Counted from the first letter of the stretch, positions 765 through 58,686 are shown. The stretch: DNA of 64,000 bases from Prevotella sp. (GCA_031285625.1 JAITVV010000080.1:55902-119901), one strand, 5' to 3'. The notes: generated from the sequence alone by a model not told the origin. A program made the numbers and translations.

Positions 765-1358
765 ATGGAAATTATAAATTTTATTGAGAATAATTGGATT
801 AGTATAGCCGGTGCTATCATCGGACTTGTATTTCTTTTTCTGGAGTATAAGGCTAATGTATGGATGTGGGCTGCCAGTATTGTTATGGCTGCATTTTACA
901 TCTATATCTTTTATACTACCAGATTGTATGCCAGTATGGCGATCTATATCTATTTCTTTTTAGCATCAGTTTATGGCTGGGTTGTTTGGGTATTTCGTAA
1001 CAGGGATAGAGAAACCGGGCGTGAAATTATTACACATGTCGGAAAACGCTATATCTTACCTATTATACTGGGAGTGTTTTTCATTTCCATATTGATTTAT
1101 CTGGTTTTGGTACAGTTTAGTAATAATCTGGCATTAATTACTATTGGCGATTCTCTAACCACTTCCCTTAATATTGTCGCTCTATGGATGATTTCCCGTA
1201 AATGGGCCGAGCAATGGTTGTTGGTTATTCCTGCAAATCTTATTTCAGCAATTCTTTTATTTGCCCGGCATGACGTCATGTCAGGTTGTCTCTTCATTAT
1301 ATTCTTTCTTGTATCCATTATGGGTTATTTTAAATGGAAAGGGTTGATTAATAGATAA
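765..1358 (+). CDS. pnuC: PnuC-family (PnuT-like) vitamin transporter
   Basis: Multi-TM 197 aa with YGW..W, DSLTT.L..VA.W and EQWL motifs typical of PnuC; follows a TonB receptor. Confidence 0.85.
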   Translation: MEIINFIENNWISIAGAIIGLVFLFLEYKANVWMWAASIVMAAFYIYIFYTTRLYASMAIYIYFFLASVYGWVVWVFRNRDRETGREIITHVGKRYILPIILGVFFISILIYLVLVQFSNNLALITIGDSLTTSLNIVALWMISRKWAEQWLLVIPANLISAILLFARHDVMSGCLFIIFFLVSIMGYFKWKGLINR

Positions 1359-3572: not shown

Positions 3573-4868
3573 ATGCCAAAGTTGAAACATATTATTCCCA
3601 TGTTACTGCCATTAATAGTCATGTTCTATTATATTTATCCGCAGGCATTAGACATAAGAGGATCGTCTTTTATCTCTTTATCCGGGGTAGTTGGGCTTGG
3701 GGTATATGCATATCATCGTTTCCCGTTCAAAGAAGTGGTTTTCTTGTTATGCGGTTTTTTTGTGTTGTTCTTTACATTTTATTCTTCAACATGGATTAAT
3801 GGGGCTTACGATGATTATAGTATGAGCTATGCAAAGAGTCAGATTGCATGCTTATTTTCAGCATACCTGGTTATTTTCTTAATTTTTAAAACACATGTAA
3901 GACCCTCACTAAATACTGTTTTATTATACATCATTGCAGCTATAGCTTTACAATCTTTTCTGGCTTTTCTAATGTATATCAGTGAACCTATTGAAACTTT
4001 CCTTTTCTCACTTCAGATGCAGGTTGATTATACAGAAGAGATTAGAGAAGAGGCTGGACGGCAACGCTTGATGGGATATGGAATTGGGTTCTTTGGAGCA
4101 GGTGCGATTAGTGGGATAGCACTTATTTTGTTATCCTATCTGTTCATGAGGATGAAATTGAAAACTACAGAATTTGTGCTGCTGGCTGGACTGTATGTTC
4201 TTATTTTCTATATTGGCTTATTTATGGCGCGTACAACAATTGTGGGTATGGCCGTAGGATTTGGCGTGATAGCAGTTTTATACATTTGGGATAACCGAGC
4301 TGTAAAGAAGCAGGCTAAGACATTTGTTATTGCTTCTATTTTTTTGATGGCAGCCGGTTATGTTTTTGCAATGTTTTATTTCTCTAGTTTTTCTGACTGG
4401 GCATTTGAGTTGTTTACAAATCTGTTCGTTCATGGTAGGTTAGAAACAAAGTCATCCAGCGGATTAGCCGAAATGTTTATAATTCCTGAAGAAACATGGA
4501 CTCTTATTTTTGGTACCGGATCGTCGGCGTTTTTTGGTAGTGATGTAGGATATACACGTATTCTTTTCTATGTAGGTATAATTGGAGGATTAGCCTTCTT
4601 CTTATATCCATTGTTTATAATAAAATTGAGCATGACTAAAGACTGGGGAGTTAATATTGTAGCTTTCTCAATATATGTATATTCACTAGCCCTTAATATT
4701 AAGGGGTTGATCGAATTGAATCTTATATTATACCTTATTTTCTTTTATTTCATGTTCTATAGGTATTATATTTATTACCCTAAGCAGTACAGAATGGCAT
4801 TGAAAAGGAAAAAAATGAGAGAGGCGTATAAAAAATCTCCAACAGAAGTAATAGATATTACAAAATGA
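3573..4868 (+). CDS. Wzy-like polysaccharide polymerase or O-antigen ligase-type membrane protein
   Basis: About 10-12 hydrophobic segments, FMARTT and SDVGY motifs, position inside a glycan cluster. Confidence 0.6.
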   Translation: MPKLKHIIPMLLPLIVMFYYIYPQALDIRGSSFISLSGVVGLGVYAYHRFPFKEVVFLLCGFFVLFFTFYSSTWINGAYDDYSMSYAKSQIACLFSAYLVIFLIFKTHVRPSLNTVLLYIIAAIALQSFLAFLMYISEPIETFLFSLQMQVDYTEEIREEAGRQRLMGYGIGFFGAGAISGIALILLSYLFMRMKLKTTEFVLLAGLYVLIFYIGLFMARTTIVGMAVGFGVIAVLYIWDNRAVKKQAKTFVIASIFLMAAGYVFAMFYFSSFSDWAFELFTNLFVHGRLETKSSSGLAEMFIIPEETWTLIFGTGSSAFFGSDVGYTRILFYVGIIGGLAFFLYPLFIIKLSMTKDWGVNIVAFSIYVYSLALNIKGLIELNLILYLIFFYFMFYRYYIYYPKQYRMALKRKKMREAYKKSPTEVIDITK

Positions 4869-10559: not shown

Positions 10560-11621
10560 ATGTTTGTAGTAAATGGCAGATATTTGACCCAGAAAGCGAC
10601 AGGTGTTCATCGTTATGCGTTTGAAATATGCAACAAATTGCATGAGATGGGAGTTGACTTTCATGTAGCTATACCGCAAGAGATAGACCCCGGTTATAAG
10701 ATTGCATTCAAGACGGTAAAATGCGGGTCGTTGAATACACATATGTGGGAACAAATATCTCTGCCTCGTTATCTGAAAAGTATTGGTTCTCCATTACTGA
10801 TTAGCTTCACGGGCTGTGGGCCGCTGAACTATGATAATCAGATAATGACAATTCACGATGTCTCTCACGAACGTTACCCCCAGTGGTTTTCGAAGAACTA
10901 TTACCGGTTTTACCATTTTATGATGCCCCGTATAGGGAGAAAAGCACATGCAGTACTTACTGTAAGTGAATTTTCGAAAGATGAAATCGTGGATACTCTT
11001 GGGCTTGATAAGGATAAAATACATGTAATACATAGTAATGTACCTTTTCATAATAAACCGTCGAAAGATGAGATTTTAAACTTTCGTCGTGACCCTGATG
11101 CCGAAAGATATATCATTGCTGTATCATCTATGGATCCCCGTAAAAACTTTGTACGTCTGGTTGAAGCTTTTGATAAGATTGAAGATAAGTCTGTTAAATT
11201 ATATATAATTGGAATGTCCTTTAAGGCATTCAATACCCCTGATTTGCAGAAGCTGATAAACGAAAGAGTGCATTTACCAGGATATATCCCCGACGAAGCA
11301 TTACAGACAATGTATCAAAATGCATTATTGTCGGTATACCCTTCATTATATGAGGGATTTGGATTGCCACCATTGGAGTCGATGACTTATGGTTGTCCGG
11401 CGATTAATTCTAGTATTCCTGCATTGCGTGAGGTAAGTGAAGATGCGGCATTGTACGTCGATCCGTATGACGTTGAAGATATGACAATAAAAATAAACCA
11501 GTTGTTAGAAGATGAATCTTTGAGGCAGGCGCTGCGTTTAAGAGGCTTGGAACAGATTAAGAAATACTCATGGGACAAATCTGCCAAGCAGGTATATGAA
11601 TTAGCACAACGATTTATGTAA
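10560..11621 (+). CDS. GT4-family glycosyltransferase
   Basis: TGVHRY, TIHD, RKN, YEGFGLPPLES. Confidence 0.9.
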   Translation: MFVVNGRYLTQKATGVHRYAFEICNKLHEMGVDFHVAIPQEIDPGYKIAFKTVKCGSLNTHMWEQISLPRYLKSIGSPLLISFTGCGPLNYDNQIMTIHDVSHERYPQWFSKNYYRFYHFMMPRIGRKAHAVLTVSEFSKDEIVDTLGLDKDKIHVIHSNVPFHNKPSKDEILNFRRDPDAERYIIAVSSMDPRKNFVRLVEAFDKIEDKSVKLYIIGMSFKAFNTPDLQKLINERVHLPGYIPDEALQTMYQNALLSVYPSLYEGFGLPPLESMTYGCPAINSSIPALREVSEDAALYVDPYDVEDMTIKINQLLEDESLRQALRLRGLEQIKKYSWDKSAKQVYELAQRFM

Positions 11622-47510: not shown

Positions 47511-49973
47511 TTAATCTAAATCAACAACAGTGATCCCTGTTCCTCCAAACTGTACATGCTCATCCTGATAATTACGGACTCCCGGAGCACTATGCAGATA
47601 ATCCCTGATGATTTGTCTTAATGCTCCTGTGCCCGTTCCATGAAGGATACGGACACGGGACATACCTACTAATACAGCATCATCGATAAAATACATCACA
47701 GCTTGTAGCGCTTCGTCGCCTCTCATACCTCTCACATCGATATCTTGCTTGAAGTTAAGCTTTTTTTCTCGTACATCATCAGTGGCAGCGGCACTCATTA
47801 ATGTGCTTTTTGTATCCCGTTTAACCTGATTTTTGCTTACATATTCCAGCGTATCGAGCTTCGCAGTCGATTTTATCATACCGAAAGCAACAATAGCACT
47901 ATCTTTTTTTATATCCAGTACTTGTCCTATAGATGTCTGCCCTTTAATGCGCACATTATCTCCAACAGATATCGGTTGCTGTCTTTGCTCTTTAGGCTGT
48001 TTGTCCTTTTGTTTCTTTGTTTTTTCTTTGTCTTTTATTTTTTGAATTTTACGGGCGATCTTATCATCCGTAAAATTATCATCGTTTCCTAGTGTCGATT
48101 TAAAATCATTAAGCGATTGCCGCGCTTCTTTGGTTTTCTCCTTTTCAGCTTGAGATTCCCTTATTGTACGTATTGTATTTTCTATCTTCGCATTAGCTTC
48201 TGATAATATGCGTTCTGCTTCAGTTTTTGCCTGACGGAGTATTTCTTTGCGCTGTTTATCTACAGCAAGCAAGTCGGTTTCGTAAGTTTCTGTAATTTCT
48301 TCAAGCCGTTTTTCTTTTTGGCGAACACTTTGTCGTTTGGTTTCCCAATAACGTTTGTCACGGACTATATCTTGCAAATACTTGTCCATATTGATATAGT
48401 CACTACCAACAATTTCAGAAGCATCTGCAATAACATCTTCTGGAAGGCCAATCTTTCGCGCAATTTCTATAGCAAACGAACTTCCCGGATTGCCAATAGA
48501 AAGGGTAAATAACGGTTGCATCAGATGGCGGTCATAGAGCATAGCCCCGTTTACCACGCCTTTGTGCTCATTTGCGTAATGCTTCAGATTCTGATAGTGT
48601 GTTGTTATTACACCGAATGCTTCTTTTTCATTAAAGCGTTTAAGTAATGATTCAGCAATAGCACCCCCTATCTGAGGTTCAGTACCACCTCCGAATTCGT
48701 CAATGAGCAAAATTGTATTCTTATCACAGTTCCTGACAAAATATTTCATGTTGGTCAGATGCGAGCTATATGTACTCAGGTCGTTTTCTATAGATTGTTC
48801 ATCACCTATATCTATAAATATATTATCAAATACTCCAACAATAGAATTCTCGGCCAGTGGAATAGGAACTCCGCATTGAACCATATATTGCAAAAGTCCT
48901 ACGGTTTTCAAACATACGGACTTTCCTCCGGCATTGGGTCCTGAAATAATAAGTAGTCGCTTGTCCTCTTCAAGCTCTATATCAAGAGGGACGATATTTT
49001 TATTTTGTTTCCTGTGAGATATGAACAATAAAGGATGCTTAGCCCTATACCACCTGATAATCTGTTTGTTTTCCATTGGTGGTTTGATGGCATCAATATC
49101 GATAGCAAAAGTAGCTTTGGCTCTGATGAAATCTATCATAGCCAGAAATTCATAGGATTGCAAGATCTCGGGAACAAGCGGGCGTAGAATATCCGTGAAT
49201 GCGATTAGTATTTTTACTATCTCGCGACGTTCTTCACTTTCCAGCTCTCTTATGCGATTATTAGCTTCCACCACCTCGGCAGGTTCTATAAACACGGTTT
49301 TTCCGGAAGCAGACTCATCATGTACGATTCCCTTTATTTTTCGTTTGAATGCAGGGGCAACAGGTATCACCAGACGTCCGTCACGCATTGTTGGGGTTAC
49401 GTCTTTTTCTACAAGGCCCTCACTTTGAGCTGATCGGAGAATTGCATTTAAGCTTCGAGAAATACCACCCGCTACATGTGCAATATCTTTTCGTATGCGA
49501 TTCAGTTCGGATGAAGCATTATCCTTTATACGTCCAAACTTATCTAGAATGTTATCTATCCTGCTGATTAGCTGTGGAAAGACAATAACTTCGCCTGCTA
49601 AAGCATATAAATAAGGGTAAGCTGTGTTTTCTTCGTCTTCTTTCTTTAGAAAGGAAACGATATCACGTATTGTTTGTAGCGAACGGCGTAGGTCAAACAG
49701 GGCTATTTCATCTATCCATGTACCTTCTATCCGTATATTACGTAACGATGGACGGACATCCAAAAAGTAATTGGTAGGGAAGTTATCCTCTTCTTGTATA
49801 ATCCGGATAAATTCCTCTGTTTGTGATAATGCATCTGTTATATGTATGTAGTCAGAAGAAAAAAGCATTTCCTCGACCCTTTCTTCTCCTAATGGACTTA
49901 AGCATTTGGATGCAAGTATTTGACGAATTTTGTCAAATCCTATTTTATATTCAAAATTTTCAGGATAGATCAC
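47511..49973 (-). CDS. mutS2: MutS2 (MutS ATPase with Smr domain)
   Basis: SGPNAGGKS, DIGDEQS, DEFGGGTEP, C-terminal Smr (DVRGMR...HGTGTG). GTG start at 49973 preferred because the upstream start codon falls inside a TATCTTTG promoter. Confidence 0.95.
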   Translation of the reverse strand: MIYPENFEYKIGFDKIRQILASKCLSPLGEERVEEMLFSSDYIHITDALSQTEEFIRIIQEEDNFPTNYFLDVRPSLRNIRIEGTWIDEIALFDLRRSLQTIRDIVSFLKKEDEENTAYPYLYALAGEVIVFPQLISRIDNILDKFGRIKDNASSELNRIRKDIAHVAGGISRSLNAILRSAQSEGLVEKDVTPTMRDGRLVIPVAPAFKRKIKGIVHDESASGKTVFIEPAEVVEANNRIRELESEERREIVKILIAFTDILRPLVPEILQSYEFLAMIDFIRAKATFAIDIDAIKPPMENKQIIRWYRAKHPLLFISHRKQNKNIVPLDIELEEDKRLLIISGPNAGGKSVCLKTVGLLQYMVQCGVPIPLAENSIVGVFDNIFIDIGDEQSIENDLSTYSSHLTNMKYFVRNCDKNTILLIDEFGGGTEPQIGGAIAESLLKRFNEKEAFGVITTHYQNLKHYANEHKGVVNGAMLYDRHLMQPLFTLSIGNPGSSFAIEIARKIGLPEDVIADASEIVGSDYINMDKYLQDIVRDKRYWETKRQSVRQKEKRLEEITETYETDLLAVDKQRKEILRQAKTEAERILSEANAKIENTIRTIRESQAEKEKTKEARQSLNDFKSTLGNDDNFTDDKIARKIQKIKDKEKTKKQKDKQPKEQRQQPISVGDNVRIKGQTSIGQVLDIKKDSAIVAFGMIKSTAKLDTLEYVSKNQVKRDTKSTLMSAAATDDVREKKLNFKQDIDVRGMRGDEALQAVMYFIDDAVLVGMSRVRILHGTGTGALRQIIRDYLHSAPGVRNYQDEHVQFGGTGITVVDLD

Positions 49974-50057
49974 ACTATTATTTTTTATTGGGTGCAAAGA
50001 TAATGAATTTGCTTAAAAAGTTTTATTCTCATTTTTTTGTAAAATTGACATAGAATT

Positions 50058-50089
50058 TTTGTTAAATATAAAATTAAATTCTATTTTTG
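50058..50089 (+). promoter_or_regulatory. Bacteroidota sigma-A promoter with no protein gene directly downstream
   Basis: TTTG (50058-61), 20-nt spacer, TATTTTTG (50082-89). Confidence 0.55.
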
Positions 50090-50095
50090 TAGTGA

Positions 50096-50616
50096 CAATA
50101 CATAAAAGAAGACTTGAAAGGTCCTTTGCAAACTGAATAAAATATTAGAATAACAAAAGTATCAGATATTTACATCAAAGTAAAGAAGAACTATACATTA
50201 TTTTTTATTACCTATATACTTTAAGGAGCCCAAATTAAAAACCATTAAAAATATAAGATATAAAATAATTGGAAAACGAAGACCAAATAACTTCTGGTTC
50301 TACTTGTCTGAAACTTTCAAAAATAAAATATAGAATATACCAATGCAATAGAGGAGTGACTAAAGGATTTATTGGGCATTTATTATCCTGCAATGACTCT
50401 TATCTTTAAACTAACAAGTGTTTTACCTCATTTATTTGCTTGTGAAAGTGGATACTTGGGTTGTCATTGAAAAAACACTTCTCTAACGCGTTGGTTATTT
50501 AATCTCTTACTTGCCAAGCCGAATATATATGGTTAGACTCACTAATCAACTGGTATTATGCATGGTTTCTTAAATATACTTTAGATATCTGAAATTATAT
50601 TATTCTTTCTTAATAG
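50096..50616 (+). ncRNA. Putative large structured ncRNA of unknown family
   Basis: Nested long-range helices, a pseudoknot, a GNRA tetraloop hairpin, + strand G-U pairs, an upstream promoter, and no ORF of 60 aa or more. Confidence 0.55.
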
Positions 50617-50658
50617 TATTTTTGTATTTGTTTGGTATATAGCTACAAAAGGAATTCT

Positions 50659-50680
50659 TTTTTATATTCATTCTAAATAG
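50659..50680. promoter_or_regulatory. Fur-box-like site upstream of feoAB
   Basis: TTTATATTCATTCTAAATAG resembles the ATTTAGAATnATTCTAAAT-type palindrome found at Bacteroidota iron genes (recalled). Confidence 0.5.
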
Positions 50681-50752
50681 GCTGAAATTTATATCTTCTT
50701 TTAGATAAAAAATACGCATCTTTGCACTTCTAAATTAAAGAAAGATTTGGCT

Positions 50753-53230
50753 ATGCTTTTGTCTGATTTGAAGACGGGTGAAAAAGGTGTGATTGTACGT
50801 GTTTACGGTAGTGGTGCCTTTCGAAAACGTATTCTGGAAATGGGTTTTATCAAAGGTAAAACAATAAAGGTTATTCTTAATGCACCTCTGAAGGACCCGA
50901 TTAAGTATAAAATAATGGATTATGAAGTTTCACTGCGTCGTAGTGAGGCGAGACTAATCGAGGTTGTTTATTCCGATACACCTAAAGTAAAAGGGGAATT
51001 TTCCTCTCAGGATCCGGTTACTGTTGATTCTGACCGGTATTCAGAAGATGCTTTTATTCCTTCGCATAGGGCATCACATTTGGAGGGGAAGAAAAAAATT
51101 ACGGTTGCGTTAGTGGGAAATCCTAATGCTGGTAAGACGTCTTTATTTAATATCGCTTCAGGTGCTCATGAGCATGTGGGGAATTATGGCGGCGTCACAG
51201 TTGATTCAAAAGAGGGTAAGTTTAAGCATGGTGGATACACATTCCATATAGTCGATCTTCCTGGTACCTATTCATTATCAGCATATACCCCCGAGGAGCT
51301 TTTTGTAAGAAGGCATATTGTAGAGGATCAGCCGGATGTTATAATAAATATTGTAGCAGCATCCAATCTGGAACGTAATCTATATCTGACCACGGAGCTT
51401 ATAGATATGGAGGTGCCTGCTGTGATAGCACTGAATATGTATGATGAGTTGCAGGATACAGGCAGTGAATTTGATTATCAGAGTCTCTCTGAAATGATTG
51501 GCATTCCTATTGTTCCTACTGTTGCAAAATCAGGGGTTGGTATAGGTGATCTATTTGATGCGGTGATCCGTGTATATGAAGAGAAAGAACCTGTCGTTCG
51601 CAGAGTTCATATATATTATGGTAATACAGTAGAGAATTCTATAAGCAAACTGAACATATTGCTTGAAAAGCAAATGGGAGCCGGATTAGTCTTTCCCCGC
51701 CGTTATATTTCTGTCAAATTACTGGAAAAAGATAAAGATATCGATGCATATGTAAGCGGATTGTCAAATGCGAAGGATATATTTACTTTAAGGGATGCGG
51801 AAATAAAATATATTGAGGACACACTAAAAGAAGATACAGAGTCTGCATTAACCAATGCGCGTTATGGCTTTGTGGCCGGGGGGCTGAAGCAAACCTTAAA
51901 AGAGAAGCTAGTAGAATCGGATACTACCCGTATGATAGATGCTGTGGTGACAAATAAGTATCTTGGTTTTCCTATCTTTTTCTTCTTTATGTGGGTTATG
52001 TTTGAATGTACCTTCAGGCTTGGTGGATACCCTATGGAGTGGATAGAAAGCGGTGTAGGTGTATTGGGCGATTTTATCCGTACTACTATGGCTGATGGAA
52101 TGCTCAAGGATCTTATTGTTGATGGCATCATTGGCGGGGTAGGGGGCGTTATTGTTTTTCTTCCCAATATATTGATATTATATGCTTTTATTTCATTTAT
52201 GGAAGATTCCGGCTATATGGCACGTGCAGCTTTTATAATGGATAAGGTTATGCATAAGATGGGGTTGCATGGAAAATCTTTTATCCCACTTGTAATGGGT
52301 TTTGGTTGTAATGTACCTGCCATATTGTCAACTCGTACTATCGAGAGCCGTAATAGCAGAATGATAACTATGCTGATCAATCCTTTTATGTCTTGTAGTG
52401 CCCGATTACCGGTTTATCTGTTGTTTGTGGGGGTCTTCTTTAAGTCATATGCCAGTTTTGTCTTATTCGGATTATATTTTACGGGTATATTGCTTGCAGT
52501 TGTTTCTGCCAGGCTGTTTAAGCGATTTCTTTTTCCTAAAGAGGATATGCCTTTTGTAATGGAATTACCTCCTTATCGTATGCCTACCGCAAAATCAGTT
52601 GCGATACATATGTGGGATAAATCCCAGCAATATTTGAGAAAAATGGGAGGGGTTATTCTTATTGCATCTATTATTATTTGGTTCTTGGGGTATTTCCCTC
52701 TGGATAAAGAGCGCGAAGATAGATATAACCAATTAATGACTCAGATTGAGCAACAGGATAGTCTGGCTGAGGTAGAAAAGGGGGCGCAACTTGAGGAACT
52801 GATGGATCAGCATAATATTGAGCATCAGGAAGAATCATATATAGGGCGTATCGGAAAGGCTATCGAGCCGGTAATGAAACCTCTTGGTTTCGACTGGAAG
52901 ATAAGTGTGAGTTTATTGTCTGGTATGGCCGCGAAAGAAGTTGTAGTAAGTACACTGGGTGTCTTATATACAGGTGAATCGGAAAATCAGGAATCCTTGG
53001 AGGCCCGGTTGACAAGTGAAACTAAAGCAGATGGTTCTCCTACTTTTACACCGTTGGTTGTTGTCAGTTTGTTGCTTTTTGTGTTAATTTACTTTCCATG
53101 TGTTGCTACTATAGTTGCAATAAAAGAAGAGGCTGGGTCATGGAAGTGGGGCGTTTTTAGTATCATTTATACAACAATGTTAGCTTGGTTTATCTCTTTT
53201 ATTGTCTTTCAGATTGGAAGTTTGCTCTAA
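50753..53230 (+). CDS. feoB: Ferrous iron transporter FeoB with N-terminal FeoA fusion
   Basis: FeoA (RILEMG, APLKDP, SLRRSEA); GNPNAGKT, DLPGTYS, NMYD; GFGCNVP, CSARLP, YFPC. Confidence 0.96.
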   Translation: MLLSDLKTGEKGVIVRVYGSGAFRKRILEMGFIKGKTIKVILNAPLKDPIKYKIMDYEVSLRRSEARLIEVVYSDTPKVKGEFSSQDPVTVDSDRYSEDAFIPSHRASHLEGKKKITVALVGNPNAGKTSLFNIASGAHEHVGNYGGVTVDSKEGKFKHGGYTFHIVDLPGTYSLSAYTPEELFVRRHIVEDQPDVIINIVAASNLERNLYLTTELIDMEVPAVIALNMYDELQDTGSEFDYQSLSEMIGIPIVPTVAKSGVGIGDLFDAVIRVYEEKEPVVRRVHIYYGNTVENSISKLNILLEKQMGAGLVFPRRYISVKLLEKDKDIDAYVSGLSNAKDIFTLRDAEIKYIEDTLKEDTESALTNARYGFVAGGLKQTLKEKLVESDTTRMIDAVVTNKYLGFPIFFFFMWVMFECTFRLGGYPMEWIESGVGVLGDFIRTTMADGMLKDLIVDGIIGGVGGVIVFLPNILILYAFISFMEDSGYMARAAFIMDKVMHKMGLHGKSFIPLVMGFGCNVPAILSTRTIESRNSRMITMLINPFMSCSARLPVYLLFVGVFFKSYASFVLFGLYFTGILLAVVSARLFKRFLFPKEDMPFVMELPPYRMPTAKSVAIHMWDKSQQYLRKMGGVILIASIIIWFLGYFPLDKEREDRYNQLMTQIEQQDSLAEVEKGAQLEELMDQHNIEHQEESYIGRIGKAIEPVMKPLGFDWKISVSLLSGMAAKEVVVSTLGVLYTGESENQESLEARLTSETKADGSPTFTPLVVVSLLLFVLIYFPCVATIVAIKEEAGSWKWGVFSIIYTTMLAWFISFIVFQIGSLL

Positions 53231-58502: not shown

Positions 58503-58686
58503 AGAAAGATTTAAGTCGTATTGGTCGATTGGGAAGCTCATCAATTAATAAATGACCGAGACAAGCTTTTGATTCTAATGGCGGGCCACACCTTCGGGTT
58601 GCTTAGCGCAGTGGATTACAAAGGGATCGAGGCACTCAAATCCTGTTTAACGGAGTTTCGGTATATCCACCAATGCGACTTTATAT
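58503..58686 (+). ncRNA. Structured ncRNA, probably the Bacteroidales-1 RNA motif
   Basis: Promoter TTTG-N20-TATATTTG (58465-58496); closing helix AAGTCGTATTGGT/ACCAATGCGACTT; inner GTGGAT/ATCCAC; cUUCGg hairpin; downstream terminator. The family name is from recall, not a search. Confidence 0.7.

Follow-up and report, generated by a model that had tools for sequence, protein, structure and literature searches.

The 64,000-nucleotide (nt) stretch of Prevotella sp. DNA analyzed here (GCA_031285625.1 JAITVV010000080.1:55902-119901; hereafter the window) contains, in the gap between mutS2 and feoAB, a structured non-coding RNA of ~173 nt on the + strand. Sequence comparison of this RNA, designated class A, with its copies in other genomes and with its divergent paralogues indicates a new covariation-supported RNA family with at least five subclasses, which belongs within the structured bacterial small RNAs and leaders. 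The first-pass annotation of the gap had proposed an unannotated large non-coding RNA of ~500 nt. Its unannotated, structured nature and its location on the + strand held, whereas its size did not, the RNA measuring ~173 nt; no Rfam family matched it.

When 40 related genomes were searched at the DNA level, only two parts of the gap gave matches, namely query positions 330-504 (about 50330-50503), hereafter the core, and a block just before the start of feoAB. Zero matches were obtained for 50503-50646, the region that carries the 3' arms (50530-50606) of all five outer helices of the ~500-nt proposal. The core was found by nhmmer in 16 of 20 feoB loci, each time on the feoB strand, and a covariance model (R1), built on an alignment (A1) of 16 class A copies, detected it at 112-176 bits in 24 of 35 Dysgonomonas genomes. 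The homologue search put forward in the first-pass annotation thus returned a core with covarying helices. Class A is syntenic across the genus and is conserved far more than its flanks. The 50330-50502 stretch occurs at one place in the window's own genome (G000) and is therefore not a multi-copy mobile element. One genome, G011, has in addition a second class A copy that is truncated at the 5' end (L044:1223-1339, - strand; 32.7 bits over model positions 21-141); it lies between the full copy and feoAB, ~160 nt downstream of the former.

Covariation was analyzed in two alignments. The model-fitted alignment comprised 35 sequences (24 class A and 11 class B; 34 distinct rows) and leans towards structure; in it, 94.0% of the cells pair, versus 34-44% when the partners are slid by 1-3 columns, both sides change in 24 of 30 pairs, and 0 of 500 shuffles matched any of five measures. 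The plain MAFFT alignment of 16 class A copies, which is independent of structure fitting, gave 94.8% pairing versus 30-42% for slid partners, with 7 pairs changing on both sides and again 0 of 500 shuffles as good. The minimum free energy (MFE) of the core was -47.7 kcal/mol (z -4.55, 0 of 200 shuffles as good), and its - strand gave a z of -2.68. The 521-nt stretch representing the larger proposal reached z -2.2 on the + strand (2 of 100 shuffles as good) and z 0.05 on the - strand. The comparison with shuffled controls that had been suggested with that proposal was positive for the core and negative for the 233 nt 5' of it, which fold no better than shuffles (z -1.2); the fold signal of the 521-nt stretch is explained by the core alone. 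G-U pairs are numerous in the core helices, and the antisense model scores 20-36 bits versus 112-176 bits for the sense model. The RNA was assigned to the + strand because of these many G-U pairs, the fold energies and the lower antisense scores, in agreement with the strand first proposed.

The core consists of a closing stem P1 followed by P1b, P2, P3 and P4 and ends in a U-rich tail, and the four-helix fold is present in all 24 genomes (Table 1). In P1b, all 4 pairs change on both sides and 100% of the cells pair across classes A and B; its extension to 9 base pairs was seen in the MFE structure and in the subgroup alignment. The P2 loop contains TGGGCATTT, which is common to class B. Inspected by eye, one subgroup closes P2 with an A-U pair and the other with C-G. 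The lower scores of P2 in the two automatic counts come from a one-base loop indel that misaligns the stem of one subgroup. The P4 loop is GUGA in the window and GUGA, GGGA, GCGA or GAGA among relatives. The 12-nt motif of P4 (50438-50449) is common to most paralogue classes, with variants in class E and a few other copies. Several elements of the fold had been recognized in the first-pass annotation. Its hairpin at 50364/50385 corresponds to P2, with the invariant loop and the switching closing pair, and its GUGA-loop stem at 50433-54 is the covariation-backed P4. Of its pseudoknot, CAATGAC/GTCATTG is P3, while the crossing helix (50416-24/50472-80) is possible in the window's subgroup, where it competes with the extended P1b. 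All seven closest copies retain this crossing helix, G011 with one compensatory swap, and it is not traceable in the other subgroup. For ACACUU (50475-80), the window's subgroup offers two alternative partners, GAGUGA (50353-58, in P1b) and AAGUGU (50416-21, within P3), a possible two-state switch.

Public sequencing runs were searched for the stretch, and four RNA-labelled runs (X3, X13, X17 and X20) among the twenty that contain part of it were compared. In X13, a 203-nt contig (word depth 123) spans 50330-50502, and in it 50502 is followed immediately by 50330. The length of this contig, 173 + 30 nt, is that expected of a closed cycle if the assembler's k-1 is 30 (word size 31). In X17, which belongs to the same study, a 162-nt contig covers 50355-50494 and is flanked by adapter letters. 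In X20, from a second study, a 242-nt contig covers 50363-50511 and carries 93 additional unlike 5' letters resembling the copy of another strain. The 10-kb contig of X3 runs across everything and is uninformative. The contig stops differ (50494, 50502 and 50511), and the flanks (mutS2, feoAB and the rest of the gap) are without cover in X13, X17 and X20, which is not evidence of their absence. The 50502-50330 joint comes from a single contig in a single run and departs from the genomic order; whether it reflects a true circle or template switching, it points to ends at 50330 and 50502.

The distribution of the family was examined beyond the 35 genomes. With R1, nothing convincing was found in 116 genomes of other genera in the same bacterial family, where a single match of 33 bits was obtained, and with a second model (R2) one borderline match only (30 bits, E 0.007) was found in 149 other genomes of the order. 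A class D pattern scanned against 401 genomes of the order retrieved only G000, G015 and one unconfirmed match. In an all-species pattern scan (at least 119 stretches), all 16 model-confirmed matches among the 80 listed were from Dysgonomonas and the others were due to chance. Class A is also carried by a cultured strain, Dysgonomonas gadei ATCC BAA-286 (L106, 175 bits). For viral contigs, 80 of 85 class D-pattern stretches were scanned, yielding no full-length match and two partial ones (23 bits). By these searches, the RNA family appears restricted to Dysgonomonas so far.

The Rfam check suggested in the first-pass annotation returned no family match in the gap. With Rfam 15 (4227 models) at the gathering score, RF01693, the Bacteroidales-type 6S RNA, was the sole match in the whole window (58514-58686, + strand, full length, 141.9 bits). 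At E values up to 10, the gap gave three chance-level matches (18-22 bits versus cut-offs of 59-70), and at E values up to 1 the twelve paralogue loci gave tRNAs and two weak unrelated matches only. A small protein gene was not supported either, since the only open reading frames (ORFs) on the + strand of the core are of 46 and 32 amino acids (aa). The core has no conserved open frame, because the indels in its alignment are not multiples of three and the invariant columns sit in loops.

The relation of class A to feoAB was analyzed on both sides of the RNA. Upstream, the sequence taken for a promoter in the first-pass annotation, TTTG-N20-TATTTTTG, is present and kept in 6 of the 7 closest genomes aligned; in this subgroup, the form TTTG-N19-21-TAYTTTTG lies 213-250 nt before the core, and outside it TAnnTTTG occurs 54-240 nt upstream. 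The motif definition is that of the Bacteroides promoter consensus. From the candidate site, the primary transcript would start at ~50095-50100, and 50097-50329 may be a 5' leader that is removed. Downstream, P1 is directly followed by at least 4 T in 16 of the 24 class A copies (manual count), and a further GC hairpin with a U-run lies 3' of the RNA in L043, L052 and L053. The 25-nt block that precedes feoAB is located ~35 nt before the -7-box-like CATCTTTG and ~75 nt before the feoAB ATG, and TTTG is found 18 nt upstream of CATCTTTG in several of the 20 feoAB-linked loci. Judged by the promoter consensus, a putative -33/-7-type promoter of feoAB lies between the RNA and the ATG, and block and box together are probably the operator of an iron or other regulator and the feoAB promoter. 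The halves of the block form an imperfect 7-1-7 inverted repeat. In four loci (L048, L049, L052 and L053), the RNA is found without feoAB downstream and still scores 115-128 bits, mutS2 remaining the divergent neighbor in three of them. Gene association is therefore not constant: feoAB follows 20 of the 24 copies but not the other 4, and paralogues precede unrelated genes or none. Because the promoter-like site intervenes and feoAB is absent downstream in 4 of 24 genomes, the RNA was regarded as an independent unit that lies 5' of the feoAB promoter.

Weaker full-length matches of R1 (30-52 bits) were found elsewhere in the same genomes. These paralogues share the architecture and have divergent P1 sequences, and the P4 12-nt motif is kept in most classes. 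P1 arm sequences differ between classes A and B with the pairing kept, which, at the level of sequence, argues for selection on the fold and not for transposase sites. In nine genomes, class B, whose P2 loop core is UGGGCAUUU, lies ~13 kb away from class A. At L056 and L058, its place is between the 3' ends of two convergent genes, encoding an ABC-F-type ATPase and a phosphoserine phosphatase as read from the translations alone, and no downstream gene is on its own strand. Class C is located ~55 nt before a secreted-protein gene whose product has a mature end starting with QVTIGS. Class D RNAs are 110-150 nt long and have a P1 of 12-17 base pairs followed by a U-run, with UUGUCU motifs before P4. 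Class E, with two copies (L062 in G063 and L078 in G144), has a variant P4 motif. From a mixed alignment (A4) of classes C, D and E, P4 alone was recovered.

The class D model (R3) detected 0-12 copies per genome, with matches in 17 of the 35 genomes, and many copies lie within 500 nt of contig ends. Of its 11 matches in G000, those on C10, C23, C37 and C55 (two) end 29-110 nt before paralogous secreted-protein genes, and one precedes a kdpD-like gene (read from the translation). Class D positions are syntenic between species both at the kdpD-like gene and at one and the same secreted-protein gene, the RNA preceding the gene in each case. G004 has a tandem pair of class D copies upstream of its kdpD-like gene (L074:917-1043 and 1501-1643). 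The distance from class C and D RNAs to the start codon is 29-60 nt, too short for a separate promoter, and these classes must therefore be read-through leaders.

The secreted-protein paralogues are 230-640 aa long and start, after the signal peptide, with QVT[IVM]G..P..A.LQL. No Pfam or NCBIfam family matched them, and the protein atlas offered, as a high-scoring lead, phage-tail-like trimerisation/C1q-like clusters of Bacteroidota. Most of these genes have a class C or D RNA in front and ~320-aa proteins encoded on the other strand alongside. An (AG)n microsatellite of ~40-60 nt, visible as RERERE... in ORF lists, was observed ~230-250 nt upstream of class C and D RNAs (Table 1). It may allow phase variation by strand slippage, and the many copies at contig ends are probably due to it.

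Table 1. Positions of the features described. Unprefixed coordinates refer to the window; G000 is the window's own genome.
Feature	Position	Strand	Basis or remark
Promoter-like site, Bacteroidota type (candidate)	50058-50089	+	TTTG 50058-61, 20-nt spacer, TATTTTTG 50082-89
Stretch between promoter-like site and core	50097-50329	+	Aligns only in closest relatives; fold z -1.2
Conserved structured RNA, class A	50330-50502	+	~173 nt; covariance model, covariation, fold energy, RNA-library contigs
P1, 5' arm ACCAATGC	50339-50346	+	Pairs with GCGTTGGT 50488-50495; 8/8 pairs change on both sides (classes A and B), 93.5% of cells pair
P1b, 5' arm	50350-50358	+	AGAG 50350-53 general, to 50358 in the window's subgroup; pairs with 50476-50484
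P2 hairpin	50364-68/50385-89	+	Loop invariant in 16/16 aligned class A sequences
P3, 5' arm CAATGAC	50391-50397	+	Pairs with 50463-50469; 6/7 pairs change on both sides, 98.7% of cells pair
P4 hairpin, GNRA loop	50433-41/50446-54	+	Four inner pairs nearly invariant, outer pairs covary
P3, 3' arm GTCATTG	50463-50469	+	As for the P3 5' arm
P1b, 3' arm	50476-50484	+	CTCT 50481-84; longer in the subgroup
P1, 3' arm (50488-95), and U-rich tail (50496-50502)	50488-50502	+	Tail end from the contig joint
Conserved 25-nt block, operator-like, not part of the RNA	50655-50679	+	Near letter-for-letter in 20/20 feoAB-linked class A loci
-7-box-like CATCTTTG of the putative feoAB promoter	50717-50724	+	~28 nt before ATG 50753; in 20/20 linked loci
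Secreted-protein gene, G000	C10:8725-10647	-	
Secreted-protein gene, G000	C23:55122-56384	+	
Secreted-protein gene, G000	C23:56406-57410	+	
Secreted-protein gene, G000	C37:88168-88941	+	
Secreted-protein gene, G000	C55:574-2100	+	
Secreted-protein gene, G000	C55:2717-3943	+	
Secreted-protein gene, G000	C71, start 21539	-	
Secreted-protein gene	L064:1725-2411		
(AG)n microsatellite	L064:1249-1320		
(AG)n microsatellite	L065 ~1190-1260		
(AG)n microsatellite, G000	C10 ~11085-11145	-	
(AG)n microsatellite, G000	C55:85-145		

Taking these results together, class A is interpreted, with moderate confidence, as a free-standing, stable, trans-acting small RNA (sRNA). Transcription would start at the promoter-like site at ~50058-50089 (50-250 nt upstream in other species) and would terminate at the P1/U-tract. 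The unstructured 5' leader would be trimmed to the foot of P1, leaving a nuclease-resistant core to accumulate, and the RNA would act in trans and not as a feoAB leader, which is the least certain step. The compact scaffold would display two invariant elements as partner contact sites, the P2 loop (with UGGGCAUUU) and the P4 GNRA hairpin. P4 would contact a family-wide factor, most likely a protein, and the P2 loop a class-specific partner, which could be an mRNA or the same protein. The link of class A to iron is one of position, beside feoAB.

Several observations weigh against a trans-acting sRNA. Contigs cannot reveal ends, strand or level, and RNA libraries can contain DNA. No canonical or conserved promoter lies directly before 50330/P1 in the class A loci examined, so that the 5' end would be processed or come from an unrecognised promoter. 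Only 17 of 24 copies have a TAnnTTTG in the 600 nt before the core, at variable distance, which is not far above chance (an estimated ~0.5 occurrences per copy), and the window's own U-tail is weak (TATTTAA). Class A adjoins feoAB on the same strand in 20 of 24 genomes, and the fact that classes C and D are leaders speaks for cis action across the family. The P2 loop is invariant as expected of an sRNA seed, but neither enrichment of complementary sites nor a conserved target was found: the 9-mer complement of the loop occurs 43 times versus ~35 expected, with 15 ORF matches that are all internal or spurious; 8-mers near 4836 crude ORF starts number 43 versus ~31 expected, which is not above chance; and the best-looking target gene is present in only 3 of the 35 genus genomes. 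When the core was compared with the feoA start region in 17 genomes, duplex z values ranged from -2.5 to +2.9 with no common site.

These points bear on the main alternative, which is clearly less probable, namely that class A is a cis-acting attenuator of feoAB, riboswitch-like or protein-dependent, in which transcription stops at the P1/U-tract or reads through and the short RNA is the terminated leader. Besides the shared strand and the adjoining feoAB in 20 of 24 genomes, the T-run after P1 in 16 of 24 and the class C and D leaders that must be read through, it is favored by L054 and L036, in which the RNA ends only ~30-40 nt before the feoAB upstream block. On the other hand, the RNA is followed by a conserved promoter-like site and an upstream block that belong to feoAB and intervene in 20 of 20 linked loci, and the spacer varies from ~30 to >400 nt with a further canonical terminator in 3 genomes. 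The RNA is kept at 115-128 bits in the 4 of 24 genomes with feoAB elsewhere, class B has no downstream same-strand gene in L056 and L058, and no Rfam riboswitch was matched. The same intervening promoter and block, extra terminator hairpin and copies away from feoAB weaken the very long feoB leader that the first-pass annotation had considered as an option.

It is improbable that the RNA is instead a small circular or end-joined molecule of 173 nt, with ends ligated in the cell by RtcB or self-processed. The X13 contig, which joins 50502 to 50330 and has the 173 + 30 nt of a closed cycle if k-1 is 30, is consistent with it, P1 holds the ends side by side, and an RtcB gene is encoded in G000. 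However, this is one contig of one run, from which the share of joined molecules is unreadable, and no known ribozyme family was matched. If reverse transcriptase leaves one copy at its 5' end and resumes at the 3' end of another, the same joint arises for any abundant small RNA, and template switching could thus have yielded the one observed. Apart from this one unexplained end-to-end joint, nothing points to the ribozyme-like element suggested in the first-pass annotation. A wider form of the proposal, also doubtful, is that the 173-nt circle (made by RtcB or self-processing) belongs to a family of end-closed RNAs, free or leader, which offer the GNRA hairpin to a genus-specific factor, class A being an exonuclease-proof decoy beside the iron-uptake operon. 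A decaying small dispersed repeat, similar to miniature inverted-repeat transposable elements (MITEs) or to Correia or enterobacterial repetitive intergenic consensus (ERIC) elements, transcribed incidentally and without function at the RNA level, is very unlikely. It would account for the 0-12 class D copies per genome, many of them within 500 nt of contig ends, and for their terminal inverted arms of 12-17 base pairs. Class A, however, is single-copy, syntenic and better conserved than its flanks, internal helices covary, arms differ between classes with the pairing kept, and even class D shows synteny between species. The paralogues have diverged strongly, scoring 30-52 bits against the class A model, and copy-number variation leaves only class D open to this explanation.

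Hardly any credence is given to the ~500-nt pseudoknotted RNA at 50100-50616 as first drawn. All strings quoted for it are present at their coordinates, the outermost two of its helices appear in the MFE structure of the 521-nt stretch (z -2.2), and the promoter-like site at 50058-89 would suit it. Against it, 50503-50646, with the 3' arms of the five outer nested helices, matches nothing in the 40 relatives, the 5' part folds no better than shuffles, and the core alone explains the fold signal. The comparative data pair 50339-46 (ACCAATGC) with 50488-95 (GCGTTGGT), and not ATACCA with 50551-56, and GAGTGA, assigned to a helix between 50354-62 and 50530-40, pairs with ACACTT inside the core. 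The outer, long-range helices arise from chance complementarity in AT-rich DNA.

The genes bordering the gap were identified by Pfam. MutS2 is encoded at 47511-49997 on the - strand, with MutS_V, Smr and MutS2/Smr SH3 domains detected, and the FeoA-FeoB fusion at 50753-53230 on the + strand, with its ATG at 50753. The gap had been described as free of ORFs of at least 60 aa, and the ORF listing confirmed that none lies wholly within it; a 76-aa ORF (49823-50053) enters from the mutS2 side. A -7-box-like TATCTTTG at 49994-50001 on the - strand overlaps the TTG listed as the mutS2 start (49997) and is kept on the mutS2 strand in the closest genomes. The true mutS2 start is probably an ATG further inside.

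To our knowledge, neither Hfq nor ProQ is present in Bacteroidota, and only a handful of the regulatory RNAs of this phylum are understood; no relevant report on regulatory or structured RNAs of Dysgonomonas was found in the literature searched. The family described here would span free-standing RNAs and terminator-closed leaders of a large secreted-protein family, and it offers a new Rfam entry and a handle on a possible genus-specific RNA-binding regulator recognising the shared hairpin. Within it, class A is a candidate iron-linked RNA beside feoAB, and if true circles are formed, it would rank among the few circular regulatory RNAs encoded by a bacterial chromosome.

Among known systems, 6S RNA (RF01693) is similar in being abundant, ~170-180 nt long and paired at its ends in a closing stem. 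Class A differs from it in lacking the central bubble architecture and any match to RF01693, and the 6S RNA of this genome is the one at 58514-58686. The czcD/NiCo and yybP-ykoY riboswitches likewise have a closing P1 with a U-tract upstream of a metal transporter gene on the same strand; class A, in contrast, has no Rfam match, is separated from the gene by a promoter and persists without the gene, and its paralogues precede unrelated genes or none. UpxY/NusG-like antitermination systems act on terminator-containing 5' leaders of Bacteroides capsule operons. The class C and D leaders resemble these leaders, being closed by a long stem and U-run directly before paralogous surface or secreted protein genes and sharing a sequence-invariant hairpin as a possible factor recognition site. 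They differ in that the UpxY/NusG-like systems have dedicated antitermination factors, whereas for classes C and D the factor is hypothetical; moreover, a promoter stands between class A and the gene that follows it, and no gene lies downstream of class B.

Compared with the iron-sparing sRNAs of the RyhB, PrrF, NrrF and FsrA type, which are also summarised in PMC13750123, class A is similar in that those are free-standing sRNAs with an intrinsic terminator, some located beside iron-uptake genes and some paralogous or in tandem. They are ~90-150 nt long, loosely structured, equipped with single-stranded seeds and regulated by Fur. Class A, by comparison, is almost fully structured, no Fur box was identified for it, and the upstream block belongs to feoAB. 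IroR (BTnc022), an iron-responsive sRNA of Bacteroides thetaiotaomicron, was the only iron-linked sRNA of Bacteroidales found reported in the literature searched; it is described as having a bulged 5' hairpin, a stem-loop and a terminator and as conserved among Bacteroides (bioRxiv 10.1101/2025.09.08.672848). Compared with this description, class A is set apart by its closed four-helix fold and its occurrence in Dysgonomonas only, the R2 search of 149 other genomes of the order having given a single borderline match, and it resembles IroR as a small abundant non-coding RNA of a Bacteroidales bacterium without Hfq and with a proposed iron link, which for class A is its position beside feoAB.

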